A stretch of 64,000 nt of DNA from a virus (taxonomy: Duplodnaviria > Heunggongvirae > Uroviricota > Caudoviricetes): IMG/VR virus record IMGVR_UViG_3300009784_000001, positions 278,418 through 342,417 of that record; one strand, given 5' to 3'. Of this stretch, positions 21,420 through 36,070 are shown piece by piece. The position numbers and the translations under genes were made by a program. The notes beneath the pieces were generated by a model that had not been told where the DNA came from, did no database searches, and saw only the letters and a program-made list of their open reading frames with translations. Within the stretch, counting starts at the first letter, position 1; every line of letters starts with the position of its first letter.

Positions 21420-21420
21420 A

Positions 21421-21602: not shown

Positions 21603-21633
21603 TTTGAAATTAAAAAATAAATTTATATCTTTG
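21603..21633 (+). promoter_or_regulatory. Bacteroidota-type promoter of first tRNA cluster
   Basis: TTTG...TATCTTTG. Confidence 0.75.
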
Positions 21634-21742
21634 CAGTGTAATTCAAATGAATTAGTGTTGAAGTGATAACTGAGTAAGAACATGATACTTCAAATAAATG
21701 TAGTGAGAGATGTACAGCTTTATTCATTTTTTTAGATAAGGT

Positions 21743-21864
21743 TCCCCTGTAGCTCAGTTGGTTAGAGTACTTAAAATGAAGTTTTCTGGGTAGGAAATGT
21801 TCAGCAATATCAATCAAAATCGCTGTTAACGAAGGGGTCGGCAGTTCGAGTCTGTCCAGGGGTT
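21743..21864 (+). tRNA. tRNA-Asn(GTT)-like with 48-nt insertion in anticodon stem
   Basis: Normal D and T arms; removing 21773-21820 gives CTTCG-CTGTTAA-CGAAG. Confidence 0.75.
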
Positions 21865-21911
21865 CAAAGATTTCTTATTTAGATTAAAATAAGTGGCAGA
21901 GAAGAGGATTA

Positions 21912-21968
21912 AGAAAACATACAGCATTTTTTATCAATTCAACCATAGGAAAGAAAAAGTGTTTTCTG
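21912..21968 (+). ncRNA. CAGCA-stem RNA, copy C
   Basis: AGAAAACA-TACAGCA...TGTTTTCT-G. Confidence 0.6.
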
Positions 21969-22194
21969 AAATAAAAAGATAGGGTTCACTGAGTTAAAGT
22001 GAATAGTTCAATACCAAGGTGAGGGAAGTGTTGAATGATAATATAAGTCCTTACATGTAATATAACTACATATCTAACATGTTTTATATATAGTCATGAA
22101 TGTTATAAAACCTCTGGAACATTTTTTTTTATTAGGGTAGTTTTCATTGGATTAGACCCTGACTTTATGGTAAGTTATATTTACCTTAATTTAT

Positions 22195-22270
22195 TGGAAC
22201 TTAGCTCAGCTTGATTTAGAGCATCTGTTTTACAAGCAGAGGGCCGTGGGTTTAAATCCCCCAGTTCCAA
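22195..22270 (+). tRNA. tRNA-Val(TAC)
   Basis: Cloverleaf, TCTGT-TTTACAA-GCAGA. Confidence 0.9.
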
Positions 22271-22279
22271 CAATTAAAT

Positions 22280-22351
22280 CGGGGGATAGAGCAGTGGTAG
22301 CTCACCAGGCTCATAACCTGGAGGTCGAAGGTTCGATCCCTTCTCCCCCAA
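22280..22351 (+). tRNA. tRNA-Met(CAT), initiator-like C1:A72
   Basis: CCAGG-CTCATAA-CCTGG. Confidence 0.9.
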
Positions 22352-22355
22352 CAAT

Positions 22356-22484
22356 AGGAAAGGTACAGCAAATTGAATTAAAATTCTATTTACAATTTTA
22401 CTATGAGGAAGAGAGCTTTCATCTAAAATAGGTGGAAAACAACTCTCAAAGAAATGAGTACTTCTCTAAAAACTCTCTTTCCTG
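22356..22484 (+). ncRNA. CAGCA-stem RNA, copy D (long interior)
   Basis: AGGAAAG-GTACAGCAA...CTTTCCT-G. Confidence 0.55.
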
Positions 22485-22492
22485 ATATCATA

Positions 22493-22620
22493 AAATAAAT
22501 CTTTACATCAAGGTGTACATAAATCTGTATAGTGGTACAAATGAGGGGCAAAGGAGAAGAATTTGCGTAGTCCGCTTGGAGTATCGGGTAGCTATGGTTG
22601 GGAAAGGTAAAGATTTATTT
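22493..22620 (+). ncRNA. candidate structured RNA closed by a 14-bp stem
   Basis: AAATAAATCTTTAC/GTAAAGATTTATTT enclosing GC-richer core. Confidence 0.4.
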
Positions 22621-22636
22621 TTAATTTTTATATAAT

Positions 22637-23071
22637 ATGTTATATTCAATATTATTAACATTAGGATTATTAATTTTAGCTCATTTTATTGGAGATTGGA
22701 GTAAATTTGTTCCATTTCATCAAAAAGTAGTTAATGCAAAAGTTAATAAAACCAATACATCTGGAAATTGGATATTTTTACATTCAAGTATTGTATCTCT
22801 GTATAAAATATTTGCAATTTTAATTTCATCTTGGATTATTCCAATAGGAAATATGCCAGGTTTTTTGAATACAATATGGTTTTATATTATTCTTGTAGTA
22901 ATATTTTTTGGAGAACTAATAACACATTTTGTATTTGATATTTCTAAATGGTTTCTAAATAATAAATATAATCTGAATCCATCAAAAGATATTTATTGGA
23001 CTGTTGTTGGTATTGACCAAATGCTACATTATTTAGTAATGTTAGGAATGTTATATTTATTATATTGTTAA
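22637..23071 (+). CDS. DUF3307-like membrane protein
   Basis: LAHFIGD..H..THFVFD..GIDQMLH. Confidence 0.75.
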   Translation: MLYSILLTLGLLILAHFIGDWSKFVPFHQKVVNAKVNKTNTSGNWIFLHSSIVSLYKIFAILISSWIIPIGNMPGFLNTIWFYIILVVIFFGELITHFVFDISKWFLNNKYNLNPSKDIYWTVVGIDQMLHYLVMLGMLYLLYC

Positions 23072-23079
23072 TTTTATAT

Positions 23080-23165
23080 GGCTATGTGGCGTAATTGGGA
23101 GCCGCAGGGGACTTAAAATCCCCTCTCCTGTAAAGGAGGTACAGGTTCAAGTCCTGTCATAGCTA
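23080..23165 (+). tRNA. tRNA-Leu(TAA)
   Basis: GGGGA-CTTAAAA-TCCCC, long variable arm. Confidence 0.92.
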
Positions 23166-23168
23166 CGA

Positions 23169-23289
23169 TGAGAATTAGCTCAGTTGGTAGAGCAAAGGTA
23201 TTATAAAAAGTTTCTTGAATAAGAAATGTTCAGCAATATTTAAAAATGGGAACTTTATGTCAGCAGTTCGAGCCTGCTATTCTCATCCA
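23169..23289 (+). tRNA. tRNA-like gene (TGG loop) with about 45-nt insertion in anticodon loop
   Basis: TGAGAAT/ATTCTCA-T-CCA, normal D/T arms, AAGGT/ACTTT stem. Confidence 0.7.
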
Positions 23290-23292
23290 CAT

Positions 23293-23366
23293 TTTCTGGT
23301 AGTTCAATTGAATAGAACCTTCGGCTTCTACCCGAAAAGTTGGGAGTTTGAATCTCCCCCAGAAAG
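23293..23366 (+). tRNA. tRNA-Arg(TCT)
   Basis: TTCGG-CTTCTAC-CCGAA. Confidence 0.88.
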
Positions 23367-23383
23367 CAAAATAAATAGAAAAA

Positions 23384-23614
23384 ATGAGTAGTTGTATTAA
23401 TAGATTAGATGATGAATTAGATGACCAGCAATGGAAAGAAATGGTATTAAAATGGAATGGTTTCAAATTTAAAGTAATTGATGAATTAAATGAAGTTAAA
23501 ATTAAGAATAAATATGATACCAAAGAAGTTGAAGAATGGAAATTTTTATTTAATAATAAATCCAAAATATTAGCGAATAGAGAATTGATTAACTTATTAA
23601 AAAATTGGGAATGA
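23384..23614 (+). CDS. hypothetical protein
   Basis: ORF track. Confidence 0.55.
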   Translation: MSSCINRLDDELDDQQWKEMVLKWNGFKFKVIDELNEVKIKNKYDTKEVEEWKFLFNNKSKILANRELINLLKNWE

Positions 23615-23823
23615 ATATAAAGGTAAAAGAATTAATAAGTAAATTACAATTATTTAATCCAGAAGCCGAAGTTGATATTCTATTTAATAATCAACCTTAT
23701 CCTTTGGAAATATATGGTTGGAATTGTGGTGGAGATAATAATTATTCTTCAACTGAATCTAAACAAAAAGCTATTTCAGTATCATTAGGTGGGATTGGGT
23801 TAAATGATAGTGAAAGAATGTAA
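23605..23823 (+). CDS. hypothetical protein
   Basis: ORF track. Confidence 0.55.
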   Translation: MGMNIKVKELISKLQLFNPEAEVDILFNNQPYPLEIYGWNCGGDNNYSSTESKQKAISVSLGGIGLNDSERM

Positions 23824-24159
23824 ATGAAAAGTAAATTTGAATGTAGAGATAAAGTATCATATAATACATTTGAAGAAGCAAATAAAGTATTATCAGTATG
23901 GGATAAAAAGAAAAATAATAGTGAACAATATGCTTATTCTTGTAAAGAATGTGGAAAGATACATATTACCAGTAGAAAGAAACATCTAAATAAAGTAAAA
24001 CCAATTAAATATAAGGAAATTGGATTTACAAATGAGGATAGAAAAAAATGGGGTGGTAGTCGTTCAGTTAAAGAGCAAAAAGAACTTGTAGAAGTATTGT
24101 ATAAAGGAAGAGAAAATAAAAGAGTTACTTTTGGAGATTTATTAAAAAAAGAATATTAA
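23824..24159 (+). CDS. hypothetical Zn-finger protein
   Basis: AYSCKECGKIHIT. Confidence 0.6.
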   Translation: MKSKFECRDKVSYNTFEEANKVLSVWDKKKNNSEQYAYSCKECGKIHITSRKKHLNKVKPIKYKEIGFTNEDRKKWGGSRSVKEQKELVEVLYKGRENKRVTFGDLLKKEY

Positions 24160-24179
24160 GTTTTTTTAATACAAAATAT

Positions 24180-24210
24180 TTTGGTAACTCAAAAATAATT
24201 CTTATCTTTG
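24180..24210 (+). promoter_or_regulatory. Bacteroidota-type promoter
   Basis: TTTG...TATCTTTG. Confidence 0.75.
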
Positions 24211-24231
24211 TAGTGTTATTTGAAATTATAA

Positions 24232-24419
24232 CGAGAGGTAGCTTAATGGCAGAGCGCAGTCGGAATGTAAAATTGCAATTTAATGTTCTTAAACAAGACT
24301 GAATGGTGTGCTGTGAAAGTTTGAAAAAAGTGAATACAAACTGAATGGGGTTGCAAACCTTGCAAGTTATGATGCTTGAAGTAGAATGAGTAATTGAGGT
24401 TCAATTCCCACCCTCTTGA
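24232..24419 (+). ncRNA. enlarged tRNA-like RNA (about 188 nt)
   Basis: CGAGAGG/CCTCTTG acceptor, D arm, CAGTC/GACTG stem, GGTTCAATTCC T loop. Confidence 0.65.
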
Positions 24420-24438
24420 CAAAAAAAATTAAATTGAT

Positions 24439-24705
24439 ATGAAAACATTAAGAGAAAGACAAATTGGTGAAAGATTTAAATATAGAAAAAATATAGTTGA
24501 AGTCAAATCTGTTATTTATAACAAATGTTTTTATTGTCAATTTAGAAATCAATCTAAATGGATTGTAATTCTAAATGGTTGTTATCAAGAAAAAAATATG
24601 TTTGATTCTTGTTCAAAGAAACATAATTGTTCAAGATATACCAGAAAGGATAAAAAAGATGTTTATTTCAAACTAGTCAAAAGACTTTATTTAGAAAGAA
24701 AATGA
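24439..24705 (+). CDS. hypothetical Cys-rich protein
   Basis: ORF track. Confidence 0.6.
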   Translation: MKTLRERQIGERFKYRKNIVEVKSVIYNKCFYCQFRNQSKWIVILNGCYQEKNMFDSCSKKHNCSRYTRKDKKDVYFKLVKRLYLERK

Positions 24706-25265
24706 TAGGTTCAAATAACACTGATAAGTTTAAGATATTCCAAATAAGATGGGCTGAAAAGTTGGGTTATAACGATAATCCATATTTAATAAGGTGGACA
24801 TTTATATTTTTTGGATATTCAATGAGAATACATCATTGGATTAAATCAGATGATAATAGATATTTTCATGATCATTCAAGTGATTTGTTAAGCATTGTAT
24901 TAAAAGGAAAATATACAAATGTTAAACCTCTTATGTGGAAGAAAAATTTACCTCCAACTCATTTATTTGAAGTTGAATTACCACCAGAATCTTCAATAAA
25001 GAGAAAGTTTATTTCAAATACTGTAGAGTATCCAGTTGAAGGTATTTTTAATTCTTGGAAAAATTTCTTCAATATGAAGAAATCAATATGGTTTTCAAAA
25101 GCAACTGAACAACATTACTTGAGTATTCCAAAAAAAGGTGCATGGACATTGTTATTTGAAGGAAAAGCATATCATAAGTGGGGATTTTATGTAAATCAAC
25201 ATAAATGGAGACCATTAAGATATTTCTCAAAGTTTGGTATAATACAAACAGAAAATTATCAATAA
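24702..25265 (+). CDS. cupin-like phage protein
   Basis: RIHHWIKSDD..FHDH..SIVLKGKY. Confidence 0.55.
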   Translation: MIGSNNTDKFKIFQIRWAEKLGYNDNPYLIRWTFIFFGYSMRIHHWIKSDDNRYFHDHSSDLLSIVLKGKYTNVKPLMWKKNLPPTHLFEVELPPESSIKRKFISNTVEYPVEGIFNSWKNFFNMKKSIWFSKATEQHYLSIPKKGAWTLLFEGKAYHKWGFYVNQHKWRPLRYFSKFGIIQTENYQ

Positions 25266-25281
25266 TTTTTAACATAAAAAA

Positions 25282-25313
25282 TTTGGTCATTAAAAATAAA
25301 ATTTGTATCTTTG
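25282..25313 (+). promoter_or_regulatory. Bacteroidota-type promoter
   Basis: TTTG...TATCTTTG. Confidence 0.75.
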
Positions 25314-25607
25314 CATTATAAATTATGTTTTATTGATAGATTCAGGTACTGAATATTGGCACTGTAAAATATAGTTTAGAGTAATAGGCAGTAAGTCATA
25401 TATCTATGAGTAGAGGGTAACGTTTGAAATTAGTATATACTCCTTTGAAAAAGTGCAATGACCTATTATTTTTTATTAAATATTGATAATTTTTTAAATA
25501 ATAGTATATTTATATTAAAAAACTTATAAATGGGTATTGAACCATAAATAAAAAGTAAAAACAAAAAAAGCAATGGGAACAGATGCTTAAAAAAAGAAAA
25601 AAAAGAA

Positions 25608-25739
25608 ATGAGAGAATTTAGTAAACATATTAATAATTTTGTTGAGGTTAGTTATAAACCCAATAGTAATTGTAATTCAAATGAAAAACCATTTGAAGAT
25701 GATAATAATTTGCTAAAAGGATTTTGTGTATATATGTAA
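25608..25739 (+). CDS. putative attenuator leader peptide 1 (Asn/Glu/Lys/Asp/Pro-rich, 43 aa)
   Basis: MREFSKHINNFVEVSYKPNSNCNSNEKPFEDDNNLLKGFCVYM. Confidence 0.7.
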   Translation: MREFSKHINNFVEVSYKPNSNCNSNEKPFEDDNNLLKGFCVYM

Positions 25740-25760
25740 CATTTACTCAAATATACGTTC

Positions 25761-25810
25761 CACAAACCCTGATAGCAAAATTAAAAAAGTTATCAGGGTT
25801 TTGTGTTTTT
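25761..25810 (+). terminator. attenuator terminator before tRNA operon 1
   Basis: CACAAACCCTGATAGC/GTTATCAGGGTTTTGTG + T run. Confidence 0.8.
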
Positions 25811-25817
25811 AATATAT

Positions 25818-25888
25818 GGCGCATTAGTTTAGTGGTAGAACAGGCGGTTTTCAGCCGAAGGAGAGGGTTTCGATTACCCTATGCGCTA
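25818..25888 (+). tRNA. tRNA-Glu(TTC), weak anticodon stem
   Basis: CGG-TTTTCAG-CCG. Confidence 0.75.
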
Positions 25889-25895
25889 CAAATAT

Positions 25896-25968
25896 GTACC
25901 TGTGGCAGAGTGGTTTATGCACTTGACTGTTAATCAAGACTACGAAGGTTCGATCCCTTCTGGGTACG
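25896..25968 (+). tRNA. tRNA-Asn(GTT)
   Basis: CTTGA-CTGTTAA-TCAAG. Confidence 0.9.
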
Positions 25969-25975
25969 CAAAAAT

Positions 25976-26049
25976 AGAGAGTATAGCATAATCTGGTAAG
26001 TGTGCCTTCCAAGTGGGAAGGAGATGTGGTTCAAATCCAATACTTTCTG
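25976..26049 (+). tRNA. atypical tRNA-like gene (loop CAAGTGG, nominal AGT)
   Basis: 8-bp acceptor, CCTTC/GAAGG stem, GGTTCAAATCC; lacks U33. Confidence 0.55.
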
Positions 26050-26056
26050 CAAAAAT

Positions 26057-26128
26057 AGTCTATTGGTCCAGCGGTTAGGATGCCAGATTGTCAATCTGGT
26101 GGCGAGGGTTCAACTCCCTTATAGACTG
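26057..26128 (+). tRNA. tRNA-Asp(GTC)
   Basis: CCAGA-TTGTCAA-TCTGG. Confidence 0.9.
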
Positions 26129-26134
26129 CTATTT

Positions 26135-26207
26135 CTGGGTGTAATTCAGTAGGAAGAATGCTTGGTTTGGGACCAAGATGTCGGGAGTTCGAGCCTCTCT
26201 ACTCAGA
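26135..26207 (+). tRNA. tRNA-Pro(TGG)
   Basis: CTTGG-TTTGGGA-CCAAG. Confidence 0.9.
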
Positions 26208-26214
26208 CAAAATT

Positions 26215-26290
26215 CGGATAGTAGGGAAGCTCGGTCGTTCCCGCCTGCCCTGGACGCAGGAGATCATAGGTTCAAATCCTGTTTATCCGA
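26215..26290 (+). tRNA. tRNA-Pro(TGG), C33 variant
   Basis: CCTGC-CCTGGAC-GCAGG; C1-G72, A73. Confidence 0.8.
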
Positions 26291-26427
26291 CTATAATTAA
26301 AAAAGTTAAAGGGACTTTGAAAAGAATTATAAGTGAAAATAATATGAGTAATAAATTAAAAATAAAACGAAAATGTAGCTGACCTCACAGTTAATATGGG
26401 CTGTGAGGTTGGGAATAAGGATATTAC

Positions 26428-26500
26428 TCCCTCATAGCTCAATGGTTTAGAGCTTCTGTCTTTTAAACAGAAGAACCAGGTCCGATTCCTGGTGGGGGAA
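26428..26500 (+). tRNA. tRNA-Lys(TTT)
   Basis: TCTGT-CTTTTAA-ACAGA. Confidence 0.9.
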
Positions 26501-26518
26501 CTATAAAAATAAAAAAAA

Positions 26519-26740
26519 ATGTTTTGGGATAACAAAAATAAATGTAAGAAGTATTGTATAGGTTGTAAATTTGCAAGTGAATTTAATAATAATTTTTATT
26601 GTGTTAATGAACTTGGTGAATATATTGTTGCAACAAAAAATCAAGTTTTAGTATCATTGGGATATACAGCTTTACATATATGTAGAGGTTTATTAATAAA
26701 GAAAAATTGCCCATTTTTTGAAAAAGATAGAAAATTATGA
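26519..26740 (+). CDS. hypothetical Cys-rich protein
   Basis: ORF track. Confidence 0.55.
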   Translation: MFWDNKNKCKKYCIGCKFASEFNNNFYCVNELGEYIVATKNQVLVSLGYTALHICRGLLIKKNCPFFEKDRKL

Positions 26741-26985
26741 AAGAAATTAGTATTAAAGATGTAATTGATAATAGTAAAAGAGCTAAATTAACTCATGCTA
26801 TTGCAGGGAGATTGTATTATAGGGTAGATGATATAGAAAGAAATACTACATATCAATTTTGTGTAGATATGAATGATAAAGAAGATGTTGGTTCAACTAC
26901 ATTTATTGTAGATGAAAAAGCTATTCTTTTAATGAGATATATTAGAAAATCAAAAGATTCTGGTGATTTAATTCAAATTAAATAG
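26737..26985 (+). CDS. hypothetical phage protein
   Basis: ORF track. Confidence 0.6.
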   Translation: MKEISIKDVIDNSKRAKLTHAIAGRLYYRVDDIERNTTYQFCVDMNDKEDVGSTTFIVDEKAILLMRYIRKSKDSGDLIQIK

Positions 26986-26989
26986 CATA

Positions 26990-27181
26990 ATGAGTTTTAT
27001 TTATGAAATAAAAAATTTAGAGAAAATAAAAGAAGAAGGTAGTATTTACATTCAATGCCCATGTTGCCAAGAAAGTTTTGATTATTATCTAGATAAATAT
27101 GAATTAGATATTTTGAATAAAGAAGAGGACATTTATTGTAAGTGTATAGAATGTGGTAATTCTTTCTATCTTTCTTTGTAG
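26990..27181 (+). CDS. small Zn-ribbon protein
   Basis: CPCC..CIECG. Confidence 0.6.
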   Translation: MSFIYEIKNLEKIKEEGSIYIQCPCCQESFDYYLDKYELDILNKEEDIYCKCIECGNSFYLSL

Positions 27182-27312
27182 ATTATCAAAAAGTGATAAA
27201 AATCATTTTATGTATTGTAAAAGATGAAAAGAATAAATTTGGTATATTCAATAATAATTTGTACTTTTGCGATATAATTATCTATTTATAGATACAACAA
27301 AAAAGTATAAAA

Positions 27313-27648
27313 ATGAAAAAAAGAATTATTATTTTATTATCATTATTTTTCATAATGAACATAAGTCAAGCAGCTATTTATAAAACAAAAAGTGAAAGTG
27401 ATGTAATTGAGAATAGTACAGGTTTATTTGGAGAAAAAAAAGTAGAGAAAATTGAAAATACAGAAGATAATTATGGTGGATTATTCAGAGCATCAGATCC
27501 AGGTGGAAGACCAGGGAATGGTGATGGAATTGGTCAGCAAGCACCATTAGGTGATGGATTAAAAATATTACTTATACTTTGTTTTTTCTTTCTTCTTTAT
27601 GAATTTTCTACAAACAAAAAAATTAACATAAAAAATTTGGATAATTAA
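27313..27648 (+). CDS. secreted protein with C-terminal sorting-like motif
   Basis: Signal peptide; QAPLGDGLKILL + TM + basic tail. Confidence 0.6.
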   Translation: MKKRIIILLSLFFIMNISQAAIYKTKSESDVIENSTGLFGEKKVEKIENTEDNYGGLFRASDPGGRPGNGDGIGQQAPLGDGLKILLILCFFFLLYEFSTNKKINIKNLDN

Positions 27649-27667
27649 AAAATAAATTGTAATTTTG
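27636..27667 (+). promoter_or_regulatory. Bacteroidota-type promoter
   Basis: TTTG...TAATTTTG. Confidence 0.65.
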
Positions 27668-27704
27668 TAGAGTAATAAGATATTTATAAGATATAAAAAT
27701 AGAT

Positions 27705-27782
27705 CGTGGTGTGGAGGAGTCTGGCTTTCCTCATCTGGCTCATAACCAGAATGTCACATGGGTTCAAATCCCATCACCGCAA
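27705..27782 (+). tRNA. tRNA-Met(CAT), initiator-like C1:A72
   Basis: TCTGG-CTCATAA-CCAGA. Confidence 0.88.
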
Positions 27783-27787
27783 CAAAT

Positions 27788-27841
27788 AGAAAACATACAG
27801 CATTTTTTCAATTTTCAATGGGAGAAAAAAAGTGTTTTCTG
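27788..27841 (+). ncRNA. CAGCA-stem RNA, copy E
   Basis: AGAAAACA-TACAGCA..TTTTC-AATGGGA-GAAAA..TGTTTTCT-G. Confidence 0.65.
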
Positions 27842-27850
27842 AAAAAAATA

Positions 27851-27932
27851 AGGAAAGATACAGCAATGTTAAATGGTTAAAAGAAAATTCTGTAAAAATT
27901 TTTTGAAAAGGTTCAAATCCTATTCTTTCCTG
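27851..27932 (+). ncRNA. CAGCA-stem RNA, copy F, tRNA-Tyr(GTA)-like
   Basis: AGGAAAG-ATACAGCAA, AAAATT-CTGTAAA-AATTTT, AGG-TTCAAAT-CCT, CTTTCCT-G. Confidence 0.7.
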
Positions 27933-27968
27933 TAAATTTGAAAAGTTAAATTAAAAAAAATAGAAAAA

Positions 27969-28079
27969 ATGAAACAAATTAGTAGTACATATTGTCTTGG
28001 AAGTTCATCAGCGATTAGTTTTGCTGGTACAACATCCTTTTGTACTTATCATTTTTATGATAATTTTGTTTCAAGTTAA
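27969..28079 (+). CDS. putative attenuator leader peptide 2 (Ser/Thr/Phe/Tyr/Cys/Ala-rich, 36 aa)
   Basis: MKQISSTYCLGSSSAISFAGTTSFCTYHFYDNFVSS. Confidence 0.8.
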   Translation: MKQISSTYCLGSSSAISFAGTTSFCTYHFYDNFVSS

Positions 28080-28108
28080 AAAAAGAATTACCTTAACCTG
28101 GCAAGGAT

Positions 28109-28153
28109 AAACCTGAAACAAATCTATAAAAAAGAAAAGTTTCAGGTTTTTTT
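28109..28153 (+). terminator. attenuator terminator before tRNA operon 2
   Basis: AAACCTGAAAC/GTTTCAGGTTT + T run. Confidence 0.8.
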
Positions 28154-28162
28154 AATTTATAT

Positions 28163-28247
28163 GGAAAGTAAACCTATAAGGTGTAGGAACCGCCTGCTAA
28201 GCGAGTTGTACAATTAAATGTATGTGAATCGTGTTCACTGCTCTCCG
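28163..28247 (+). tRNA. tRNA-Ser(GCT), non-canonical T arm
   Basis: CGC-CTGCTAA-GCG, long variable arm, G73. Confidence 0.75.
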
Positions 28248-28288
28248 CAAAAGTTCTTTGAAATTGTTGGTTAATTATAAATTATTAT

Positions 28289-28371
28289 GGATTAGTTGGG
28301 TAGTGGCAATCCCAAGACACTGTAACTGTCTCGCCTTCGGGCTTTCGCTGGTTCGAGTCCAGCCTAATCCA
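28289..28371 (+). tRNA. tRNA-Tyr(GTA)
   Basis: AGACA-CTGTAAC-TGTCT. Confidence 0.92.
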
Positions 28372-28412
28372 CATAAAAATATTTTTCTTAATAACTATAC
28401 TTTTTTAGTTCG

Positions 28413-29384
28413 ATGCGATATTTATATATAAATGTAAATATTATGATAAAGGAACGAGAAGAATTAATTATTAAAATAATAAAAGAGAGTAATAGTATTT
28501 CAGAGGTTTGTAAAAAGTTAAATATATCTGTTACTAATGGTAATTATATAACAATAAAAAAAATAATAAAAAACAATAATTTAGATATATCTCATTTTAA
28601 AAGAGTTTCACAAAATTCTAATAAAAAGCGATATACGTTACAAGAAATTATGGTTGAAAATTCATCATACACCAATGTAAATAAATTAAAGAAAAGATTA
28701 ATTAAAGAAGGGATTAAGGAAAATAAATGTGAAATATGTGGAATAAGTAAATGGAATGGAGAACAAATTTCTTTACAATTGCATCATAAAAATGGTATCA
28801 CAAGTGATAATAGAATAGAAAATTTACAAGTACTTTGTCCCAATTGTCATTCTCAAACACATAACTATGGTGGGAAAAATATAGATAATAAAATAAGAGA
28901 AGATAGATTTTGCAGAATATGTGAGAAAAAGTTAAACGATACACAAAAAAAGTATTGTTCAATCAATTGCTATAATAAAAGTATTGATGATAATATTCCA
29001 ACTAAAAACAAAATCTTATCTTATATAAAAAATTATACAACACTTGTAGAATTATGTAAAAAAGAAAAAATTGATAGAGGGACATTTAGAAATTGGTGTA
29101 ATAAAAGACAATGTATAGATGATGTAAATTTTTTGTTGAAAAAAAATTTTGAAATAAAAATTTTAAATATTGAAGTTAAGAATGATTTATATGAAAAAAG
29201 ATGTGAATTAATAAATAAATTTAAAAAATTTGGGTCATTCTTACAAGTAGGTAAATATTATGGAGTATCCGATAATATGATAAGAAAAAGATGTAAAAAA
29301 ATTGGTTTACCTGTTCATACAAAAGAAATGATAAAATTAATAAATTCGGAAGAATGTCAGAGTGCTTTATTGTACAACTCTTGA
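28413..29384 (+). CDS. HNH homing endonuclease with HTH repeats
   Basis: CEICG..LQLHHKNG..DNRIENLQVLCPNCH. Confidence 0.85.
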   Translation: MRYLYINVNIMIKEREELIIKIIKESNSISEVCKKLNISVTNGNYITIKKIIKNNNLDISHFKRVSQNSNKKRYTLQEIMVENSSYTNVNKLKKRLIKEGIKENKCEICGISKWNGEQISLQLHHKNGITSDNRIENLQVLCPNCHSQTHNYGGKNIDNKIREDRFCRICEKKLNDTQKKYCSINCYNKSIDDNIPTKNKILSYIKNYTTLVELCKKEKIDRGTFRNWCNKRQCIDDVNFLLKKNFEIKILNIEVKNDLYEKRCELINKFKKFGSFLQVGKYYGVSDNMIRKRCKKIGLPVHTKEMIKLINSEECQSALLYNS

Positions 29385-29432
29385 AAAGTTGTGAACTTTC
29401 GAGTTCCGTAGGTTGGAATCCTACTTCTTCCG
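29348..29432 (+). tRNA. tRNA-Ser(TGA)
   Basis: CAACT-CTTGAAA-AGTTG. Confidence 0.9.
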
Positions 29433-29443
29433 CAAGATAATAA

Positions 29444-29516
29444 GGGATAGTAACATAGAAGTTTATGTGCTGGTCTGAAAAACCAGAAATGCTTGAGGCG
29501 GTATCAGCCTATCCCA
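29444..29516 (+). tRNA. tRNA-Phe(GAA), non-canonical T loop
   Basis: CTGGT-CTGAAAA-ACCAG. Confidence 0.8.
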
Positions 29517-29526
29517 CAAATTAAAT

Positions 29527-29612
29527 GCTTCAATGGGGGAATTGCTAGACCCGCTTGATTTAGGCTCAAGTTTCTGGGAACAGAAGTGTAGGTTGGATTC
29601 CTACTTGAAGTA
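29527..29612 (+). tRNA. tRNA-Leu(TAG)
   Basis: CTTGA-TTTAGGC-TCAAG. Confidence 0.9.
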
Positions 29613-29618
29613 CAATAT

Positions 29619-29690
29619 GTTCAGTTGCCAGAGTGATAATGGGGTAGACTGCAAATCTATTTTTCGTTGGTTTGAATCCAACACTGAATT
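29619..29690 (+). tRNA. tRNA-Cys(GCA)
   Basis: GTAGA-CTGCAAA-TCTAT, U73. Confidence 0.9.
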
Positions 29691-29702
29691 CAAAAAATAA
29701 AT

Positions 29703-29773
29703 GCTGTGTTAGTATAAGAGTATTACATTGGCTTTGTAACCCAAAAATGGGGATGCGATTTCCTCACACAGCT
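29703..29773 (+). tRNA. tRNA-Thr(TGT)
   Basis: TTGGC-TTTGTAA-CCCAA. Confidence 0.82.
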
Positions 29774-29782
29774 CTAAATTAA

Positions 29783-29854
29783 GGGCTTATCATATAATAG
29801 CTATTATGCCACCCCTGCAAGGTGGTTATTGGAGTGCAATTCTCCATAGGTCCA
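29783..29854 (+). tRNA. tRNA-Ala(TGC)
   Basis: G3.U70; CCACC-CCTGCAA-GGTGG. Confidence 0.85.
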
Positions 29855-29883
29855 CTTATTTAGCATTTATTAACTTGAATAAT

Positions 29884-29914
29884 TTTGATATTAGATAATA
29901 TTTTCTTATCTTTG
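29884..29914 (+). promoter_or_regulatory. Bacteroidota-type promoter
   Basis: TTTG...TATCTTTG. Confidence 0.7.
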
Positions 29915-29933
29915 TATCATTAAAATAAATGGT

Positions 29934-30548
29934 ATGAAAAAGATAGAATTAGTTTATAATAATTTAGATATTAATAATTTACCAGGTGAAATATGGGTAG
30001 ATGCTTATGATTTTGATGGTTATTATGAAGTATCCAATATGGGGAGGATAAAAACTTGTGAAAGAGAAGTCAGTAATGGAGTTGGGACAAGAATAGTAAT
30101 TAGTAAAATTAGGAAACAGGTTTTAGGTAAAGATGATAGATTAACTTGTCCCTTTACTATAAATAATGAAAGTATATCTATAAATGTTTCAAGGTTAATC
30201 TTTCAATCTTTTAACCCCACTAAGATTTTAGATAATTTAGTGGTTTCACATAGAAATAGATGTAAATGTGATAATAGATTGAATAATTTAAAAGTGGAAA
30301 CATTACAAAACAATCATTTTGATAATGTTCATAAGTATAATTATGGCTTAAAAGAACATTTGTTAAAACTGAATAAAATTAAACATGAAAAATTTGTCAA
30401 TACAATAAAAAGCAAAGTTTGTAATAAATGTGGAATAGAAAAAGATATAATAGAATTTGTATATAAAAGAGAAGGAAAAAGAGATGAAAATAGAAATATA
30501 TGTAAAATGTGTAGAAATAAACGTGAAAGAAATAGAATTAAAAAATGA
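29934..30548 (+). CDS. NUMOD4-HNH endonuclease
   Basis: EIWVD..YEVSNMGRIK; VSHRNRCKCDNRLNNL. Confidence 0.8.
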   Translation: MKKIELVYNNLDINNLPGEIWVDAYDFDGYYEVSNMGRIKTCEREVSNGVGTRIVISKIRKQVLGKDDRLTCPFTINNESISINVSRLIFQSFNPTKILDNLVVSHRNRCKCDNRLNNLKVETLQNNHFDNVHKYNYGLKEHLLKLNKIKHEKFVNTIKSKVCNKCGIEKDIIEFVYKREGKRDENRNICKMCRNKRERNRIKK

Positions 30549-30967
30549 GTTATAAAGATTTTTTTCAAAAACCAGAGTTTGATTTGGATGAAGTAGAAGA
30601 AAAAAGAGTAAATGCTTTGAAACCAGATGAAAATGGTGATTTAATGGAAAATGGTGATTATATTTTTCAGGATAGAGCAATTCATAATCAACAAGGTAAT
30701 ACAATTCAGCGTTCTTTTACAACTGTAAAGGGAGTTAGAGTAATGGAAGATACTTACATACCCTGGTCATGCTTTCAACCAATGAGGATGACTTTTGTGG
30801 TAGATTTGACATTGCCTGATGATACATTACCAACAACTGAAACAAGTTGGATGCAAAATTGGTATGAGCCTGAAGGATTTGCTCATCCTGCATTTGTAAA
30901 TTTTGAAGATGTTGTTGAATTTATAATTAAATGGAGAAAAAGTAACCCTAAAGTGGTTAATAATTAA
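30545..30967 (+). CDS. hypothetical protein
   Basis: ORF track. Confidence 0.6.
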   Translation: MSYKDFFQKPEFDLDEVEEKRVNALKPDENGDLMENGDYIFQDRAIHNQQGNTIQRSFTTVKGVRVMEDTYIPWSCFQPMRMTFVVDLTLPDDTLPTTETSWMQNWYEPEGFAHPAFVNFEDVVEFIIKWRKSNPKVVNN

Positions 30968-30975
30968 ATAAAAAT

Positions 30976-31048
30976 GTTCAGTTCTTCTAATGGTTTAGGA
31001 AGCAAGACTGATATTCTTGTAATATAAGTTCGATTCTTATACTGAACA
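30976..31048 (+). tRNA. tRNA-Ile(GAT)
   Basis: CAAGA-CTGATAT-TCTTG. Confidence 0.88.
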
Positions 31049-31050
31049 CT

Positions 31051-31128
31051 GTGTGGGTAGCTAATATTGGTTAAGGCACTAGATTGTGGCTCTAGGTTTT
31101 TATGGGGGTTCGATTCCCCTCTCACACC
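31051..31128 (+). tRNA. tRNA-His(GTG)
   Basis: CTAGA-TTGTGGC-TCTAG, C73. Confidence 0.9.
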
Positions 31129-31142
31129 AAAAATAAGAAAGT

Positions 31143-31173
31143 TTTGTTATTTAAAAAATTATTCATATCTTTG
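31143..31173 (+). promoter_or_regulatory. Bacteroidota-type promoter
   Basis: TTTG...TATCTTTG. Confidence 0.7.
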
Positions 31174-31193
31174 TATTGTAAATTAAATAAGAT

Positions 31194-31700
31194 ATGAAAA
31201 AAATCAGAAAATTTGTATTTGAAACAAACAGTTCAAGTTCTCATTCTATTACATTAGGTGATTTAGATTCATTTAGAAAAGATAGATATGGATTAAAATC
31301 TTGTATAGATGAAAATAACAATCTTGTATTAAAAGGTGGTGAATTTGGTTGGTATTTAGAAGATGATGAGGGTGCTGAAACAAAAGTAAATTATGTTGCA
31401 GTAGCTTTAACTTATTATTATGAAGCTGCGAAAGACAATGAAGAAAATTATTATGGTTTTACATTAGATGAAATCAATAATATTATTGAATTATTTAAAG
31501 AAGTTTTGAGAGAAGAAACAGATGCAGAAGTTGTTTTCAATTTTAAAGTAGGTTGGGAAGATTCTTACATTGATCATCAATCTATTGATATGATTGCAGA
31601 TGAAATTAAAGGTAAAAATGATTCAGAATTGAAAGAATTTTTCTATAATTTCATTTTTAATGAAAATTCAATATTAATAATTGATAATGATAATCATTAA
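31194..31700 (+). CDS. acidic phage protein with FETNSSS motif
   Basis: MKKIRKFVFETNSSSSHS. Confidence 0.7.
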   Translation: MKKIRKFVFETNSSSSHSITLGDLDSFRKDRYGLKSCIDENNNLVLKGGEFGWYLEDDEGAETKVNYVAVALTYYYEAAKDNEENYYGFTLDEINNIIELFKEVLREETDAEVVFNFKVGWEDSYIDHQSIDMIADEIKGKNDSELKEFFYNFIFNENSILIIDNDNH

Positions 31701-31899
31701 TTATGAATGAAGATAGTGGAGTTAGTTGTGGATGTGGTTGTTTTTCTTTTAGTATAGGTTGGGGGACTATTATTGCTGTAATATTAAGTTGAATGAAATG
31801 GCATTCAATTGGATGGGTAATTATTCATGGGTTATTAGGATGGTTATATGTAATATATTATATTGCAAAATATGTGTTATTAAATTAAAAATATATAAT

Positions 31900-32340
31900 A
31901 TGAAAAAAATTAGAATTAGTGTTTTTGAAACGAATAGTTCCAGCACTCATAGTCTTACAATTGTATCAAAAGAAGATTTTGAGAAGTGGAAAAAAGGTGA
32001 ATTTATTTTTGACAGAAGTAATGATGAATTAGTTCCTGTTAAAGAGAAGCAATATACAGAAGAAGATTATTTAAATTATCTTAAAGATAAAGCCAAAAAA
32101 GTTGCAAATGGATATATTTTTAGAGATGTTTATTATAAAAATCTAGATGAAATATTATCATTAAATCTTATTTCTAATGATGAAATGAATGAATATTTAG
32201 AAGATGAAGGATATGATTATGATTTTCAAACTTATAAAGATTGGGAAAATGATGAATATCTTGAAACATTTCAATATTCACATACTACTCCAAGTGGAGA
32301 TGAAATTGTGGTTTTTGGTAGATATGGTTATGATGGATAA
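31900..32340 (+). CDS. second FETNSSS-motif protein
   Basis: MKKIRISVFETNSSSTHS; ATG 31900 chosen by homology to the paralog. Confidence 0.7.
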   Translation: MKKIRISVFETNSSSTHSLTIVSKEDFEKWKKGEFIFDRSNDELVPVKEKQYTEEDYLNYLKDKAKKVANGYIFRDVYYKNLDEILSLNLISNDEMNEYLEDEGYDYDFQTYKDWENDEYLETFQYSHTTPSGDEIVVFGRYGYDG

Positions 32341-32488
32341 TATATGATTTCGATAATACAACAAAAAAATATAATAAAAGAATTTATTGATTATCTACCT
32401 TTTTCTGTTCTAACAAATGAACATTCTAGGTATAAAAAGGAAATAAGTTTATATGATTATCTTGAAGAATATATTAAAAAATTAAGAG

Positions 32489-33430
32489 ATGGAGATATTG
32501 AAATCATACAAAAATGGTAATGTTGAAATTACATTATATGATAATGGAACGAGGGTAATGGAATATGATGAAACTAAACCATTATTATTTGATTATCCTA
32601 CATCTATGGATATTAAAATTACTAATTATTGTGAAGGCGGAAAGATAACCAAGAATGGTGATTTTAAATTGTGCCAATTTTGTCATGAGGAATCAAATAA
32701 AGATGGAAAACATGCTAATTTAATTGAATTAAGTAATATTTTATTTGATATTCCAGAAGGAGTTGAAATTGCACTAGGTGGAGGTAATCCATTATCACAT
32801 CCAAATTTAGTTGCTTTTTTATTAAGATGTAAAAAACAAGGTTTAATTCCTAATTTAACAGTTAATAAAAATCATCTTGTTTTTTATTATGATTTATTAA
32901 AAAATTTAATAGATAATAAATTAATTTATGGATTAGGCATATCAATTCCTACTTCTGTATGTGAATGGAATGAAAAAGAGTTATTTTTTGTAAATTATAA
33001 ACATTCAGTTGCTCATTTAATTATAGGATTGCATTCTACTAAAATAATAAATATTTTAAGAAAGATTGGTTTCAAAAAATTTTTATTATTGGGCTATAAA
33101 GAATTTGGAAGAGGTATAAAATATTATAATAGTCATTCTAATAAAATAAATGAAAATATTAAAGAATGGGAAAACAATATATTAAATATTCTAACTACTG
33201 CTAATGTAATTTCTTTTGATAATTTATCTATTAGTCAACTTAATTTACAATCTAAATTGCCTAAGAAATTGTGGGATAAATTTTATCAAGGAGATGATTT
33301 TAGTTCAACTTTGTATTTGGATGCTGTAACTAAACAGTTTGCTCCTACTTCAAGAAGCAATAAAAATGAAAGGGTAAATTGGAAAGATATAAGTTTATTA
33401 GATTATTTCAGAGATAATAGAAGAAAGTAA
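32489..33430 (+). CDS. radical SAM protein
   Basis: DIKITNYC-x13-CQFCHE, EIALGGGNP. Confidence 0.85.
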   Translation: MEILKSYKNGNVEITLYDNGTRVMEYDETKPLLFDYPTSMDIKITNYCEGGKITKNGDFKLCQFCHEESNKDGKHANLIELSNILFDIPEGVEIALGGGNPLSHPNLVAFLLRCKKQGLIPNLTVNKNHLVFYYDLLKNLIDNKLIYGLGISIPTSVCEWNEKELFFVNYKHSVAHLIIGLHSTKIINILRKIGFKKFLLLGYKEFGRGIKYYNSHSNKINENIKEWENNILNILTTANVISFDNLSISQLNLQSKLPKKLWDKFYQGDDFSSTLYLDAVTKQFAPTSRSNKNERVNWKDISLLDYFRDNRRK

Positions 33431-33457
33431 AAGTTAGATATTTATTATAAAAAAGTA

Positions 33458-34312
33458 ATGAAGAATTTAGATGAAATAAAGTTTTTATTTGAAAGAAAAG
33501 AAGAAGAGACTTTTCAAGAATATAGTGATAGAAAGGAAAAAGAACGAAGTGTATCAAGTAGTTGTAATCATAAGGGGGGGGGGATTCTTAATGAATCTGT
33601 TTCAAAAAAAAGTACTTCTGAAAGACCAAATTTTATTTCTGAAATAAAAGGTTCAACAACTAATACATGGTCTTTACATAGACTTGATGAGATGACTGTA
33701 CAAAGATTATTAGGAAAACATTCTAATAATGGTTATATAATTATATCAGCAAGTAGAGGAGTGGAAAATGAATGGAATGAACAACAGAAACAAGAACAAA
33801 GAAGATTGAATAATGAAAATTATCAAAAATTATTAGCTTCAATAAAAAATAGTGGCTTTTCTTTTATTCCTGTATATGGTGGATTTGTTGAAAATTTAGG
33901 AGAAGAAGATGAAAGACAGGTTTATGAAAAATCATTTATTGTTTTGAATTTTAATAGAAAAGGAAATGAAATGGATTTTAATGAACTTTATCAAAAAGGT
34001 TTAGAATGGACTGAAGAATTTGATCAAGATTCATTTTTATCAAAGGCTCCTGATTCAACACCAGAATATGTTGATAAAGGAGGAAATGTAACAATGAAGT
34101 TTGGTGGGGATATAAAAGTAAATGATTTAACTCAACAATATTTCACAGATTTCGTTAAGTCAAAACAATTAGGTCAAGAAACAAATACAAAGGGTGATTC
34201 AATGAGTAGAGAACACAGGATTACTTTTGAAGGAGTATTTATAAATCCTGAACCTGCTACTTTGAGTGAAAGAGTTGTAAGGGATTATTTAAATGAATTA
34301 TTTTTGAAATAA
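33458..34312 (+). CDS. putative SAM lyase (T3 SAMase-like)
   Basis: YIIISASR..GGFVE..EKSFIV..EFDQDSFL. Confidence 0.65.
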   Translation: MKNLDEIKFLFERKEEETFQEYSDRKEKERSVSSSCNHKGGGILNESVSKKSTSERPNFISEIKGSTTNTWSLHRLDEMTVQRLLGKHSNNGYIIISASRGVENEWNEQQKQEQRRLNNENYQKLLASIKNSGFSFIPVYGGFVENLGEEDERQVYEKSFIVLNFNRKGNEMDFNELYQKGLEWTEEFDQDSFLSKAPDSTPEYVDKGGNVTMKFGGDIKVNDLTQQYFTDFVKSKQLGQETNTKGDSMSREHRITFEGVFINPEPATLSERVVRDYLNELFLK

Positions 34313-34333
34313 TGTGATATTTATATAAATAAA

Positions 34334-34426
34334 ATGAAAAAAAATACAAACATATTATTAGTTGGGCAACAAGGTTGGCAACAATTTGGACAAGGCTGTG
34401 GCAATGTTCCTGATAATGGTATGTAA
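34334..34426 (+). CDS. putative attenuator leader peptide 3 (Gly/Gln/Trp-rich, 30 aa)
   Basis: MKKNTNILLVGQQGWQQFGQGCGNVPDNGM. Confidence 0.85.
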   Translation: MKKNTNILLVGQQGWQQFGQGCGNVPDNGM

Positions 34427-34460
34427 GTATATAAGGATAACCTTCGCAAATGGTGGCTCT

Positions 34461-34497
34461 GGCTTACATTACTATTAAAAGTATGTAAGCCTTTTTT
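34461..34497 (+). terminator. attenuator terminator before tRNA operon 3
   Basis: GGCTTACAT/ATGTAAGCC + TTTTTT. Confidence 0.85.
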
Positions 34498-34504
34498 AAT
34501 TTAT

Positions 34505-34576
34505 AGATTAGTGGTATAATGGTTATTACACATCGCTTTGAACGATGGAATTCCTGTTCAATTCAGGACTAATCTA
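34505..34576 (+). tRNA. tRNA-Gln(TTG)
   Basis: CATCG-CTTTGAA-CGATG. Confidence 0.88.
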
Positions 34577-34690
34577 CATCATATCAATGGCAATAGATAT
34601 GATAATAGAATAGAAAATTTACAAATACTTTGTCCTAATTGTCATTCTCAAACTGATAGTTATGCAGGAAAAAGTAGTAGAAAAAAATAA
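34574..34690 (+). pseudogene. HNH endonuclease remnant abutting tRNA-Gln
   Basis: LHHINGNRYDNRIENLQILCPNCHSQTDSYAGKSSRKK*. Confidence 0.8.
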
Positions 34691-34693
34691 AAT

Positions 34694-34765
34694 GCGTCAT
34701 TCGTATAGTGCTTATTATGCGACTCTTCCAAAGTCAGGACATCGGTTGGATTCCGATATGGCGCA
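34694..34765 (+). tRNA. tRNA-Gly(TCC)
   Basis: GACT-CTTCCAA-AGTC. Confidence 0.88.
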
Positions 34766-34775
34766 CAAAATATAT

Positions 34776-34846
34776 ACGTGTTTGGTGTAATGGTAGCATA
34801 ACTCCCTCCAAATGAGTTGGTTAGGGTTCGAGTCCTTAAATACGTG
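34776..34846 (+). tRNA. tRNA-Trp(CCA)
   Basis: ACTCC-CTCCAAA-TGAGT, G73. Confidence 0.88.
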
Positions 34847-34908
34847 CTTACTTTGAAATGTTAAATAATCTAAAATTTTTATATTATCTAATTTATTAAC
34901 ATTTTCTA

Positions 34909-34940
34909 TTTGTATAATAGAAAAAATTATCTTATCTTTG
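34909..34940 (+). promoter_or_regulatory. Bacteroidota-type promoter
   Basis: TTTG...TATCTTTG. Confidence 0.75.
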
Positions 34941-34975
34941 TTCCATAATTAATAACAATTTAAATTTTTAATAAT

Positions 34976-36070
34976 ATGGCACATAATTTAGAGAACAGAG
35001 AGGGAGAATACAGTTTTGTAAGTGCAGCTTCACAACCTGCTTGGCATAATCTTGGTAAAGTTTTTAATAAACCTAATTTGACAATTGAGGAAGCTATTAA
35101 TGAAGTAAGAGCTAATTATAATGTAAGAAAAGATTATCTGTTACGAATTACTAATGAAGATATTGAAAGAATTAAGAATGGTTTACCATTGAATGAAGTT
35201 TTTGATATGAAAGATATTATCAAAACTCACCAATGTACTGTTCGTGAAGATTTGAATAATGTTTTAGGAGTTGTTGGAAGTGGTTATGAAGTAGTTCAAA
35301 ATCTTCAAGGATTTGAATTTGTTCAGGATATTTTGAATGGAATTGAAGGAAATGTTGGGAATAATAAGCCTTATATTCAAACTGCTGGTGTATTAGGAAA
35401 TGGTGAAAGAATTTTTGTTAGTGCAAAATTTCAAAATCCTGTTAAAATTAAAGGAAGTGATGATATAATTGAAGATTACATTTTGTTTACCAATGCACAT
35501 GATGGCTCAGGTGCTGTAATTGCTACTTTTACTCCAACAAGAGTTGTTTGTAATAATACTTTGAATATGGCATTGTCAGGAGCTAAAAATAAAATTTATT
35601 TTAAGCATACAAAGAATGTTCATGGTAAATTGGATTTGAAAAATACAGATAATTTGAATATGGCTTTGAGTGTATTAAGAGGACATCAAGTATATATTGA
35701 AACTTTAACTTCACAGTTAGCAAAATTGGAAGATATTAAATTGAATGAAAATGATGTTAAAAGAATTGTTGCTGGTACATTTTTAGAGCCTGCTCAAGTA
35801 AAAGAATTTGTTCAAAATCAGTATAATCTTGATAAATTGGATATTTCTACAAAAAGTAAAAATAATATTGAAAATATGTTACATACAATAGATTGTGGTG
35901 TTGGGCAAACCATGTGGAGAGGGACTGGATTATGGGTTATTAATGGTTTCACTACTTATTATCAAAATAATAAAAGTTATAAGACTGAAGAAAAGAAATT
36001 TGATAGTATTATGGACGGTGATGCTTTCAAGAAAGTTCAAAGAGCATATGATTTAGTAAATGCTTATTGA
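34976..36070 (+). CDS. DUF932/DUF945-family phage protein
   Basis: MAHNL..PAWHNLG..YEVVQN..NAHDGSG..TPTRVVCNNTL. Confidence 0.85.
   Translation: MAHNLENREGEYSFVSAASQPAWHNLGKVFNKPNLTIEEAINEVRANYNVRKDYLLRITNEDIERIKNGLPLNEVFDMKDIIKTHQCTVREDLNNVLGVVGSGYEVVQNLQGFEFVQDILNGIEGNVGNNKPYIQTAGVLGNGERIFVSAKFQNPVKIKGSDDIIEDYILFTNAHDGSGAVIATFTPTRVVCNNTLNMALSGAKNKIYFKHTKNVHGKLDLKNTDNLNMALSVLRGHQVYIETLTSQLAKLEDIKLNENDVKRIVAGTFLEPAQVKEFVQNQYNLDKLDISTKSKNNIENMLHTIDCGVGQTMWRGTGLWVINGFTTYYQNNKSYKTEEKKFDSIMDGDAFKKVQRAYDLVNAY

Follow-up and report, generated by a model that had tools for sequence, protein, structure and literature searches.

A putative ribosome-mediated transcription attenuator with seven or more inputs at the head of a phage tRNA gene cluster

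Why phages carry tRNA genes has been an open matter for about 50 years, with codon compensation set against the countering of host tRNA depletion (PMC10264068). The stretch of DNA analysed here (the window, 64,000 nt) raises the question of how such genes may be controlled: at 27969-29854, a short open reading frame (ORF) and a terminator-like hairpin stand ahead of eight tRNA genes, an arrangement that the original prediction took for a transcription attenuator. Our analysis upholds that reading, with three refinements. It is quite probable that a ribosome-mediated attenuator gates the cluster according to how fast the amino acids of its tRNAs are decoded; the leader, the alternative helices, the switch geometry and a leader–cluster match in 18 families all fit. 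The ORF, its composition match, the mutually exclusive helices, the switch position in a folding model, and the recurrence and co-variation in other phage contigs were all computed in this study.

The window lies within a complete virus record of 359,943 bp with direct terminal repeats, a G+C content of 26% and a Gp23-type major capsid gene. The phage genome has two sigma-factor genes, one of them at 6848-7537 of the window. Genome-wide, the promoter pattern TTG-N18-22-TAnnTTTG was found upstream of 25 out of 323 genes, against 1.6 expected. Such a pattern, together with A-rich translation starts that lack a Shine-Dalgarno sequence, is of the Bacteroidota type, and the presence of both suggests that the host belongs to the Bacteroidota. 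The tRNA genes of the genome are nearly all located at 22195-34847 of the window. The closest capsid relatives are uncultured contigs (51-70% identity); no close relative was found among GenBank phages, the capsid being at most 41% identical in any named phage, and GenBank DNA matches for the region are limited to HNH and tRNA-Ser patches. In one other assembly of the phage, 27601-29900 is identical, that is, without variation.

The leader and the predicted switch comprise the following features:

27951..27968, plus strand: translation start region, A-rich and without a Shine-Dalgarno sequence, Bacteroidota type by established knowledge
27969..28079, plus strand: leader ORF of 36 codons, with sensor codons 4-30 at 27978-28058, from sequence and composition
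27970..27978, plus strand: possible region 1, formed by the start codon and codons 2-3; its 9-bp pairing with region 2 (-8.9 kcal/mol) is a tentative protector or pause helix
28065..28077, plus strand: region 2, the antiterminator 5′ strand (codons 33-37), from pairing and folding
28109..28122, plus strand: region 3, common to antiterminator and terminator, from pairing and folding
28109..28153, plus strand: intrinsic terminator, with an 11-bp stem (28109-28119:28139-28149) and a 7-U run (28147-28153)

The leader, which the public gene call misses, starts with ATG behind the A-rich region and appears to offer a usable translation start upstream of the tRNA genes. On recount its 36 residues hold, exactly as first described, nine Ser (five AGT, three TCA and one TCC), four Thr, four Phe, three Tyr, two Cys, two Ala and one Leu (CTT), along with two Ile (ATT), one His and two Gly. 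Within residues 4-30, 22 out of 27 belong to the seven amino acids Ser, Thr, Phe, Tyr, Cys, Ala and Leu, the fraction expected from the phage proteome being 0.353 (P 1.1e-6). When Ile and His are counted, the match rises to 25 out of 27 (P 3.3e-7), leaving only the two Gly (G11 and G20) unmatched, as had been claimed. The leader has the top score among the 772 ORFs of 30-50 aa in the genome, whose mean is 11.2 out of 27. Its control codons are scattered singly and would give seven to nine inputs.

The original prediction also held that the leader end pairs with a terminator arm at 12 of 13 positions, which was borne out: 28065-28077 pairs with 28110-28122, the single exception being an A-C mismatch at 28074/28113. 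A complement of that arm at 12 of 13 or better occurs in the 360-kb genome once on the plus strand (here) and twice on the minus strand. The terminator, located between the leader and the tRNA genes, has a folding energy of -13.8 to -15 kcal/mol (z -4.25) and was missed by a strict terminator scan because its loop exceeds 8 nt. It is very improbable that the locus is simply a small protein gene followed by an ordinary insulating terminator, its composition and complementarity being due to chance or a by-product of AT-richness. Taken by itself, the energy of the 2:3 duplex stands out only moderately (shuffle P 0.024); at -9.5 kcal/mol in the genome-wide scan it falls within the best 4 of 27 terminator-like hairpins, and two ordinary terminators in the genome score just as well. 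Moreover, no orthologue of this particular leader was found. The composition, in contrast, is at P 1e-6 and first of 772, which argues against such an insulator.

To model the switch, a ribosome footprint of -12 to +15 nt around the P-site codon was masked at each codon, and the transcript was folded in the state just before the terminator 3′ arm is made. In this model, the probability of the 2:3 helix is 0.77-0.95 with the P site at codons 1-28, 0.19 at codon 29 and 0 from codon 30 onwards, so that the predicted switch point (codons 29-30) coincides with the end of the cognate stretch (codon 30). The antiterminator, which excludes the terminator, would thus be freed by a ribosome on the control codons and blocked by one near the stop. 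The leader stop lies about 30 nt upstream of the terminator and, therefore, a ribosome at the stop leaves region 3 uncovered. At -10 to -12 kcal/mol, the 2:3 helix is less stable than the terminator, and for the full transcript at equilibrium the terminator wins for every ribosome position; on this folding model the choice must be kinetic and made during transcription, as in known attenuators. Pairing of the start-codon region with region 2 would, tentatively, give termination when the leader is not translated. This 9-bp 1:2 helix has a P of 0.035 here and of 0.065 and 0.035 in the two sister units described below. As a general element of relatives it was rejected, its frequency in other phages (2 out of 50) being at chance level.

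We infer leader translation, coupling, termination, the trigger and the dependence of all eight tRNAs on the switch as follows. Host ribosomes would translate the 36-codon leader behind the RNA polymerase, for which transcription–translation coupling in Bacteroidota provides the background. With plentiful charged tRNAs, the ribosome would reach codons 29-37 and cover region 2, the 3:4 terminator would form and transcription would stop near 28153. If Ser, Thr, Phe, Tyr, Cys, Ala or Leu (perhaps also Ile or His) tRNA were scarce, uncharged or destroyed, the ribosome would linger at codon 28 or earlier, region 2 would pair with the emerging region 3, and polymerase would enter the tRNA genes. The logic would be that of a multi-input OR gate with negative feedback. 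Given that extra tRNA cannot cure a lack of amino acid, the input may be a shortage of functional charged tRNA, tRNA loss included, rather than amino-acid starvation as such; starvation should open the switch too, and extra tRNA would help only where tRNA itself is lacking. The selected trigger is most likely host tRNA depletion in infection, for example by cleavage through host anticodon nucleases (PMC10264068).

The output of the switch is a cluster in the order Ser(GCT), Tyr, [HNH], Ser(TGA), Phe, Leu, Cys, Thr, Ala:

28163..28247, plus strand: tRNA-Ser(GCT), non-canonical, from homologues, with one acceptor mismatch
28289..28372, plus strand: tRNA-Tyr(GTA), ARAGORN and Rfam
28443..29384, plus strand: HNH homing-endonuclease-like gene of 313 aa that splits the cluster, from weak Pfam HNH_3/HNH matches and DNA matches to annotated HNH genes
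29348-29433, plus strand: tRNA-Ser(TGA), ARAGORN
29444-29516, plus strand: tRNA-Phe(GAA), Rfam E-value search
29527-29613, plus strand: tRNA-Leu(TAG), ARAGORN
29619-29691, plus strand: tRNA-Cys(GCA), ARAGORN
29703-29774, plus strand: tRNA-Thr(TGT), ARAGORN at lower threshold and Rfam
29783-29854, plus strand: tRNA-Ala(TGC), ARAGORN at lower threshold and Rfam

All eight tRNAs named in the original prediction are present, with the HNH gene, which that prediction left out, between Tyr and Ser(TGA). Ser(GCT) was missed by ARAGORN and Rfam and recognized through dozens of metagenome-contig homologues, which share the same odd anticodon arm while their acceptor, D and variable arms co-vary freely. 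The copy here has an A4-C69 mismatch in the acceptor stem at a position that is paired in the homologues, and for this reason its activity is not certain. The type is a widespread non-canonical phage tRNA with a bulged anticodon stem that ARAGORN usually misses; its 18-nt core gave at least 119 metagenome matches, and its pattern gave 11 matches in prokaryote genomes, none of them in a tRNA array.

The HNH reading frame ends 37 nt into tRNA-Ser(TGA) (29348-29384). An HNH remnant at 34576-34690, between tRNA-Gln and tRNA-Gly of the A3 cluster (see below), is 81% identical to 28782-28896, and this sequence likeness shows that HNH insertions into these clusters appear to recur. With such recurrent insertion, the leader may reflect an older state in which the cluster had ten tRNAs and no interruption.

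Whether the whole cluster depends on the switch turns on the promoters and genes around it:

27636..27667, plus strand: putative Bacteroidota sigma70-type promoter (-33 TTTG, -7 TAnnTTTG), from motif enrichment (25 versus 1.6 expected)
27681..27688, plus strand: TATTTATA motif ahead of tRNA-Met and the leader, a putative phage (late) promoter from its enrichment
27705..27932, plus strand: tRNA-Met(CAT) along with two small structured RNAs that carry an ACAGCA motif, all ahead of the attenuator
28419..28426, plus strand: TATTTATA motif in the cluster, possible bypass promoter, from enrichment, downstream of the terminator
29885..29914, plus strand: host-type promoter preceding a NUMOD4-HNH gene (29934-30548) and an ORF (30545-30967)
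30976..31128, plus strand: tRNA-Ile(GAT) and tRNA-His(GTG) (ARAGORN), possibly the far end of this unit, the leader having Ile twice (ATT) and His once

The promoter at 27636-27667 is the probable upstream source of transcription into the leader. By their position upstream of the attenuator, tRNA-Met(CAT) and the two ACAGCA RNAs escape its gating. Promoter-like matches inside the leader (27992 and 28040) and at 27933 were rejected, as they lack the usual 3′ extension or the -33 spacing. No host-type promoter match was found between the terminator and Ser(GCT)/Tyr and, therefore, these two tRNAs need read-through, a further point against a terminator that merely insulates.

It is quite possible, though we incline against it, that the attenuator is real and limited to part of the cluster or of the cycle, an alternative compatible with the attenuator reading that would narrow its scope. 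Ser(GCT) and Tyr would then be gated, and everything would be gated early in infection; the TATTTATA copy at 28419 would drive HNH and Ser(TGA) to Ala constitutively late, the promoter at 29885 would drive Ile/His, and the leader would still list the ancestral, uninterrupted cluster. The motif lies within 60 nt of 49 out of 323 gene starts, that of the major capsid gene among them, against 3 expected; it is probably a phage late promoter and a candidate target of one of the two phage sigma factors. The copy at 28419, 17 nt before the HNH start, could make six of the eight tRNAs, Ser(TGA) to Ala, independently of the switch, and both this copy and the promoter at 29885-29914 could bypass it. 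The presence of two sigma factors and the repeated HNH insertions are also in keeping with partial control. On the other hand, the promoter activity of TATTTATA is putative and the motif is enriched in antisense too (21 versus 49), and the leader keeps every amino acid of the six distal tRNAs, which suggests continued selection. The motif sits 17-55 nt before the 49 genes, has window copies at 25507, 27283, 27681, 28419 and 34318, and is the reverse complement of the T4 late promoter.

As no terminator-like hairpin was found on the plus strand at 28154-34461, read-through to Ile/His is possible; it is not needed, because of the host-type promoter at 29885-29914.

Several other elements surround the unit. 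The ACAGCA motif occurs beside a short stem in small RNAs at 21743-21864, 23169-23285, about 21910-21970, about 22356-22490, 27786-27845 and 27854-27932; two of these RNAs form part of tRNA-like bodies that contain long inserts (35-36 bits with Rfam tRNA), and the group is reminiscent of Y RNAs. Just upstream of the unit, an ORF of 111 aa (27313-27648) has a predicted signal peptide, a C-terminal hydrophobic stretch and no Pfam match. Tail-ward of Ile/His, the paralogous ORFs 31194-31700 and 31900-32340 both start with FETNSSS and are followed by a radical-SAM gene (32489-33430); an IMG/VR search with ORF 31194 gave zero matches, and among the contigs reached with radical-SAM homologues, those with DNA were without the tRNA region. 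tRNA-like ends around a long insert lie at 24236-24420 behind their own host-type promoter (24181-24210), with no call by ARAGORN or Rfam.

The same anatomy is found at two more tRNA clusters of the genome, and each leader best fits its own cluster:

25608..26501, plus strand: sister unit A1, with an N/E/K/D/P-rich leader (25608-25739), a terminator and Glu-Asn-Asp-Pro-Pro-Lys tRNAs
34334..34847, plus strand: sister unit A3, with a Q/G/W-rich leader (34334-34426), a terminator and Gln-Gly-Trp tRNAs

The genome has 27 terminator-like hairpins. Only four of them are preceded, at a distance of 12-50 nt, by the end of a short ORF that has an A-rich start, and three of these four stand at the heads of the tRNA clusters (A1, the present one and A3). 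A1 also contains a tRNA-like gene (25976-26050) with an abnormal anticodon loop, called Thr(AGT) by ARAGORN and holding a Gly-like TTCCAAG stretch; a second tRNA-Pro(TGG) (26215-26291) with C for U at anticodon-loop position 33; and a strong hairpin (26386-26411) just before tRNA-Lys, after a spacer that sets this tRNA apart.

Units of this kind were also sought in the tRNA regions of the capsid relatives and in 80 metagenome contigs with the Ser(GCT) pattern, using a composition-blind detector that required a hairpin and U run at most 140 nt from a cluster head and a 15-55-codon ORF ending before the hairpin. It yielded 53 units, which with the three of the window make 56 units in 18 families, families being set by leader similarity or tRNA-set overlap without a tree, so that they show matching and do not count independent origins. 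In hand-picked units, the own cluster of the leader ranked first in 13 out of 13. Across all families, with a fixed sensor window and with poor and probably false candidates kept in the set, the observed score was reached by 0 out of 4000 permutations in any of 50 draws (Z no lower than 8.4, or than 6.7 once the units of the window are left out). The control codons are thus enriched and matched to the downstream genes. The occurrence of one anatomy at three clusters here and 53 elsewhere speaks against an insulating terminator with a chance composition. Several relatives have tRNA clusters without a detected leader.

The leaders are diverse. An S/I/H/T leader precedes Ser-His-Thr-Thr-Ile-Ile-Ser (L004); a single contig (L135) has L/Q/R, K/I/V/H and S/Y/P/C/A/W leaders ahead of three matching clusters; further types are Y/E (L151), D/P/Q (L139) and R/S (many). 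‘Checklist’ leaders, with about one codon per amino acid, precede near-complete arrays for 15-20 amino acids:

L112:8690-8809: ‘checklist’ leader
L133:4438-4572: ‘checklist’ leader
L149:3340-3486: ‘checklist’ leader
L165:4111-4242: ‘checklist’ leader

In 52 of the 56 units the stop lies 17-38 nt from the terminator, in a search open to distances of up to 85 nt. Regions 2, 3 and 4 vary in concert within families, and a unit's own arm beats the swapped arm of a relative in 9 out of 10 (p 0.014), 7 out of 8 (p 0.20) and 4 out of 5 cases (p 0.13), the first alone being significant; this co-variation comes from other families, the present leader being without an orthologue. Indels tested for frame preservation pointed in opposite directions in two families (17 versus 10 and 6 versus 24), and synonymous fractions were 45% and 36% on non-independent pairs. 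Matching of leaders to tRNAs at the codon level was not convincing: where only Arg(ACG/GCG) is present, leaders have 17 CGN and 3 AGR codons, mostly in one family, and Leu, Ile and Ser gave no clean pattern. tRNAs with CTA or TCA anticodons were seen in related phages (L096:6173, L100:3585, L105:7507, L130:403 and L110:4566), possibly for stop-codon suppression or recoding.

A reading in which the codon match is secondary and any slowing of ribosomes, whether by antibiotics, toxins or shut-off, opens the switch is unlikely. In the folding model any pause at codons up to 28 would free region 2, whatever the codon, and general stress on translation induces the cyanobacterial trn operon (PMC8421152, PMC10272220). 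Such a sensor needs no composition match, yet 18 families match their own clusters with Z above 6.7, and the three units of one genome use different amino-acid sets.

A codon-specific attenuator, the reading that we prefer, may be compared with known systems. A full-text literature search, with most subscription papers outside its reach, turned up no attenuator described for tRNA genes or for phage tRNA regions. Multivalent leader-peptide attenuators of enterobacteria include ilvL of ilvGMEDA (Ile/Leu/Val) and thrL (Thr/Ile), and trpL and hisL belong to the same kind. The pheL and trpL attenuators are described in PMC3082878 and PMC6614838, respectively. Like ilvL, thrL, trpL, hisL and pheL, the phage unit has a short, presumably translated leader rich in control codons, a 2:3 antiterminator that excludes a 3:4 terminator with a U run, a choice that would be decided by ribosome position, and possibly a 1:2 helix. 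Unlike the enterobacterial attenuators, whose output is enzymes, it would put out tRNA genes; its seven to nine inputs are scattered single codons, whereas theirs are one to three in tandem runs; and there is no sequence homology between the leaders (no Rfam leader match). With no Rfam match and tRNAs as the downstream genes, the unit is not a member of the trpL, hisL, thrL, ilvL, pheL or pheM families. Judged by its sequence, it appears to have every sequence-testable feature of the ribosome-mediated attenuator class, the 1:2 helix only tentatively, while standing outside the named families.

The pheM attenuator of the E. coli pheST operon controls a synthetase. The phage unit would likewise sense charged tRNA and, through negative feedback, control a component of the translation machinery, but it would act on the tRNAs themselves and with many inputs rather than one. 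T-box riboswitches (RF00230) bind uncharged tRNA directly, without a ribosome. They share with the phage unit a tRNA-responsive choice between terminator and antiterminator, whereas the phage unit has an ORF for translation; a T-box was rejected, as Rfam gave no match in 21000-35500 at E-values of up to 1. The closest functional analogue is the Anabaena trn operon (L-array), a mobile array of tRNA genes that also carries a homing endonuclease, stays silent unless translation is stressed and is repressed by TrcR (PMC8421152, PMC10272220). Unlike the phage unit, it relies on a DNA-binding repressor acting at initiation, without codon specificity, and the terms ‘attenuat’ and ‘leader’ are absent from PMC8421152.

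The action of phage tRNAs against tRNA-cleaving defences supplies a likely reason for tRNAs made on demand, and may extend to the present unit. The tRNA-Lys of T5 reportedly acts against the PARIS defence. More generally, phage tRNAs counter host tRNA-cleaving defences, in an account that does not mention attenuation (PMC10264068).

In practical terms, the analysis flags small ORFs and non-canonical tRNAs that annotation misses, such as the leader and Ser(GCT). Attenuation is known to control biosynthetic and synthetase genes; the proposed switch would add tRNA genes to its targets and bring at least seven inputs together in one leader. A switch that opens only on stalls at cognate codons would favour on-demand replacement as the reason for phage tRNA genes, and can be tested with a 200-nt reporter. 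Tentatively, as a view almost as probable as its opposite, such units may form a widespread modular surveillance system in large phages of Bacteroidota-type hosts, in which each leader lists the amino acids of its own cluster and is rewritten with it, so that a destroyed set of host tRNAs is detected and only that set is replaced. If true, this would be an inducible counter-defence against host shut-off or anticodon nucleases, and the tRNAs under attack in each host could be read from the composition of the leaders.
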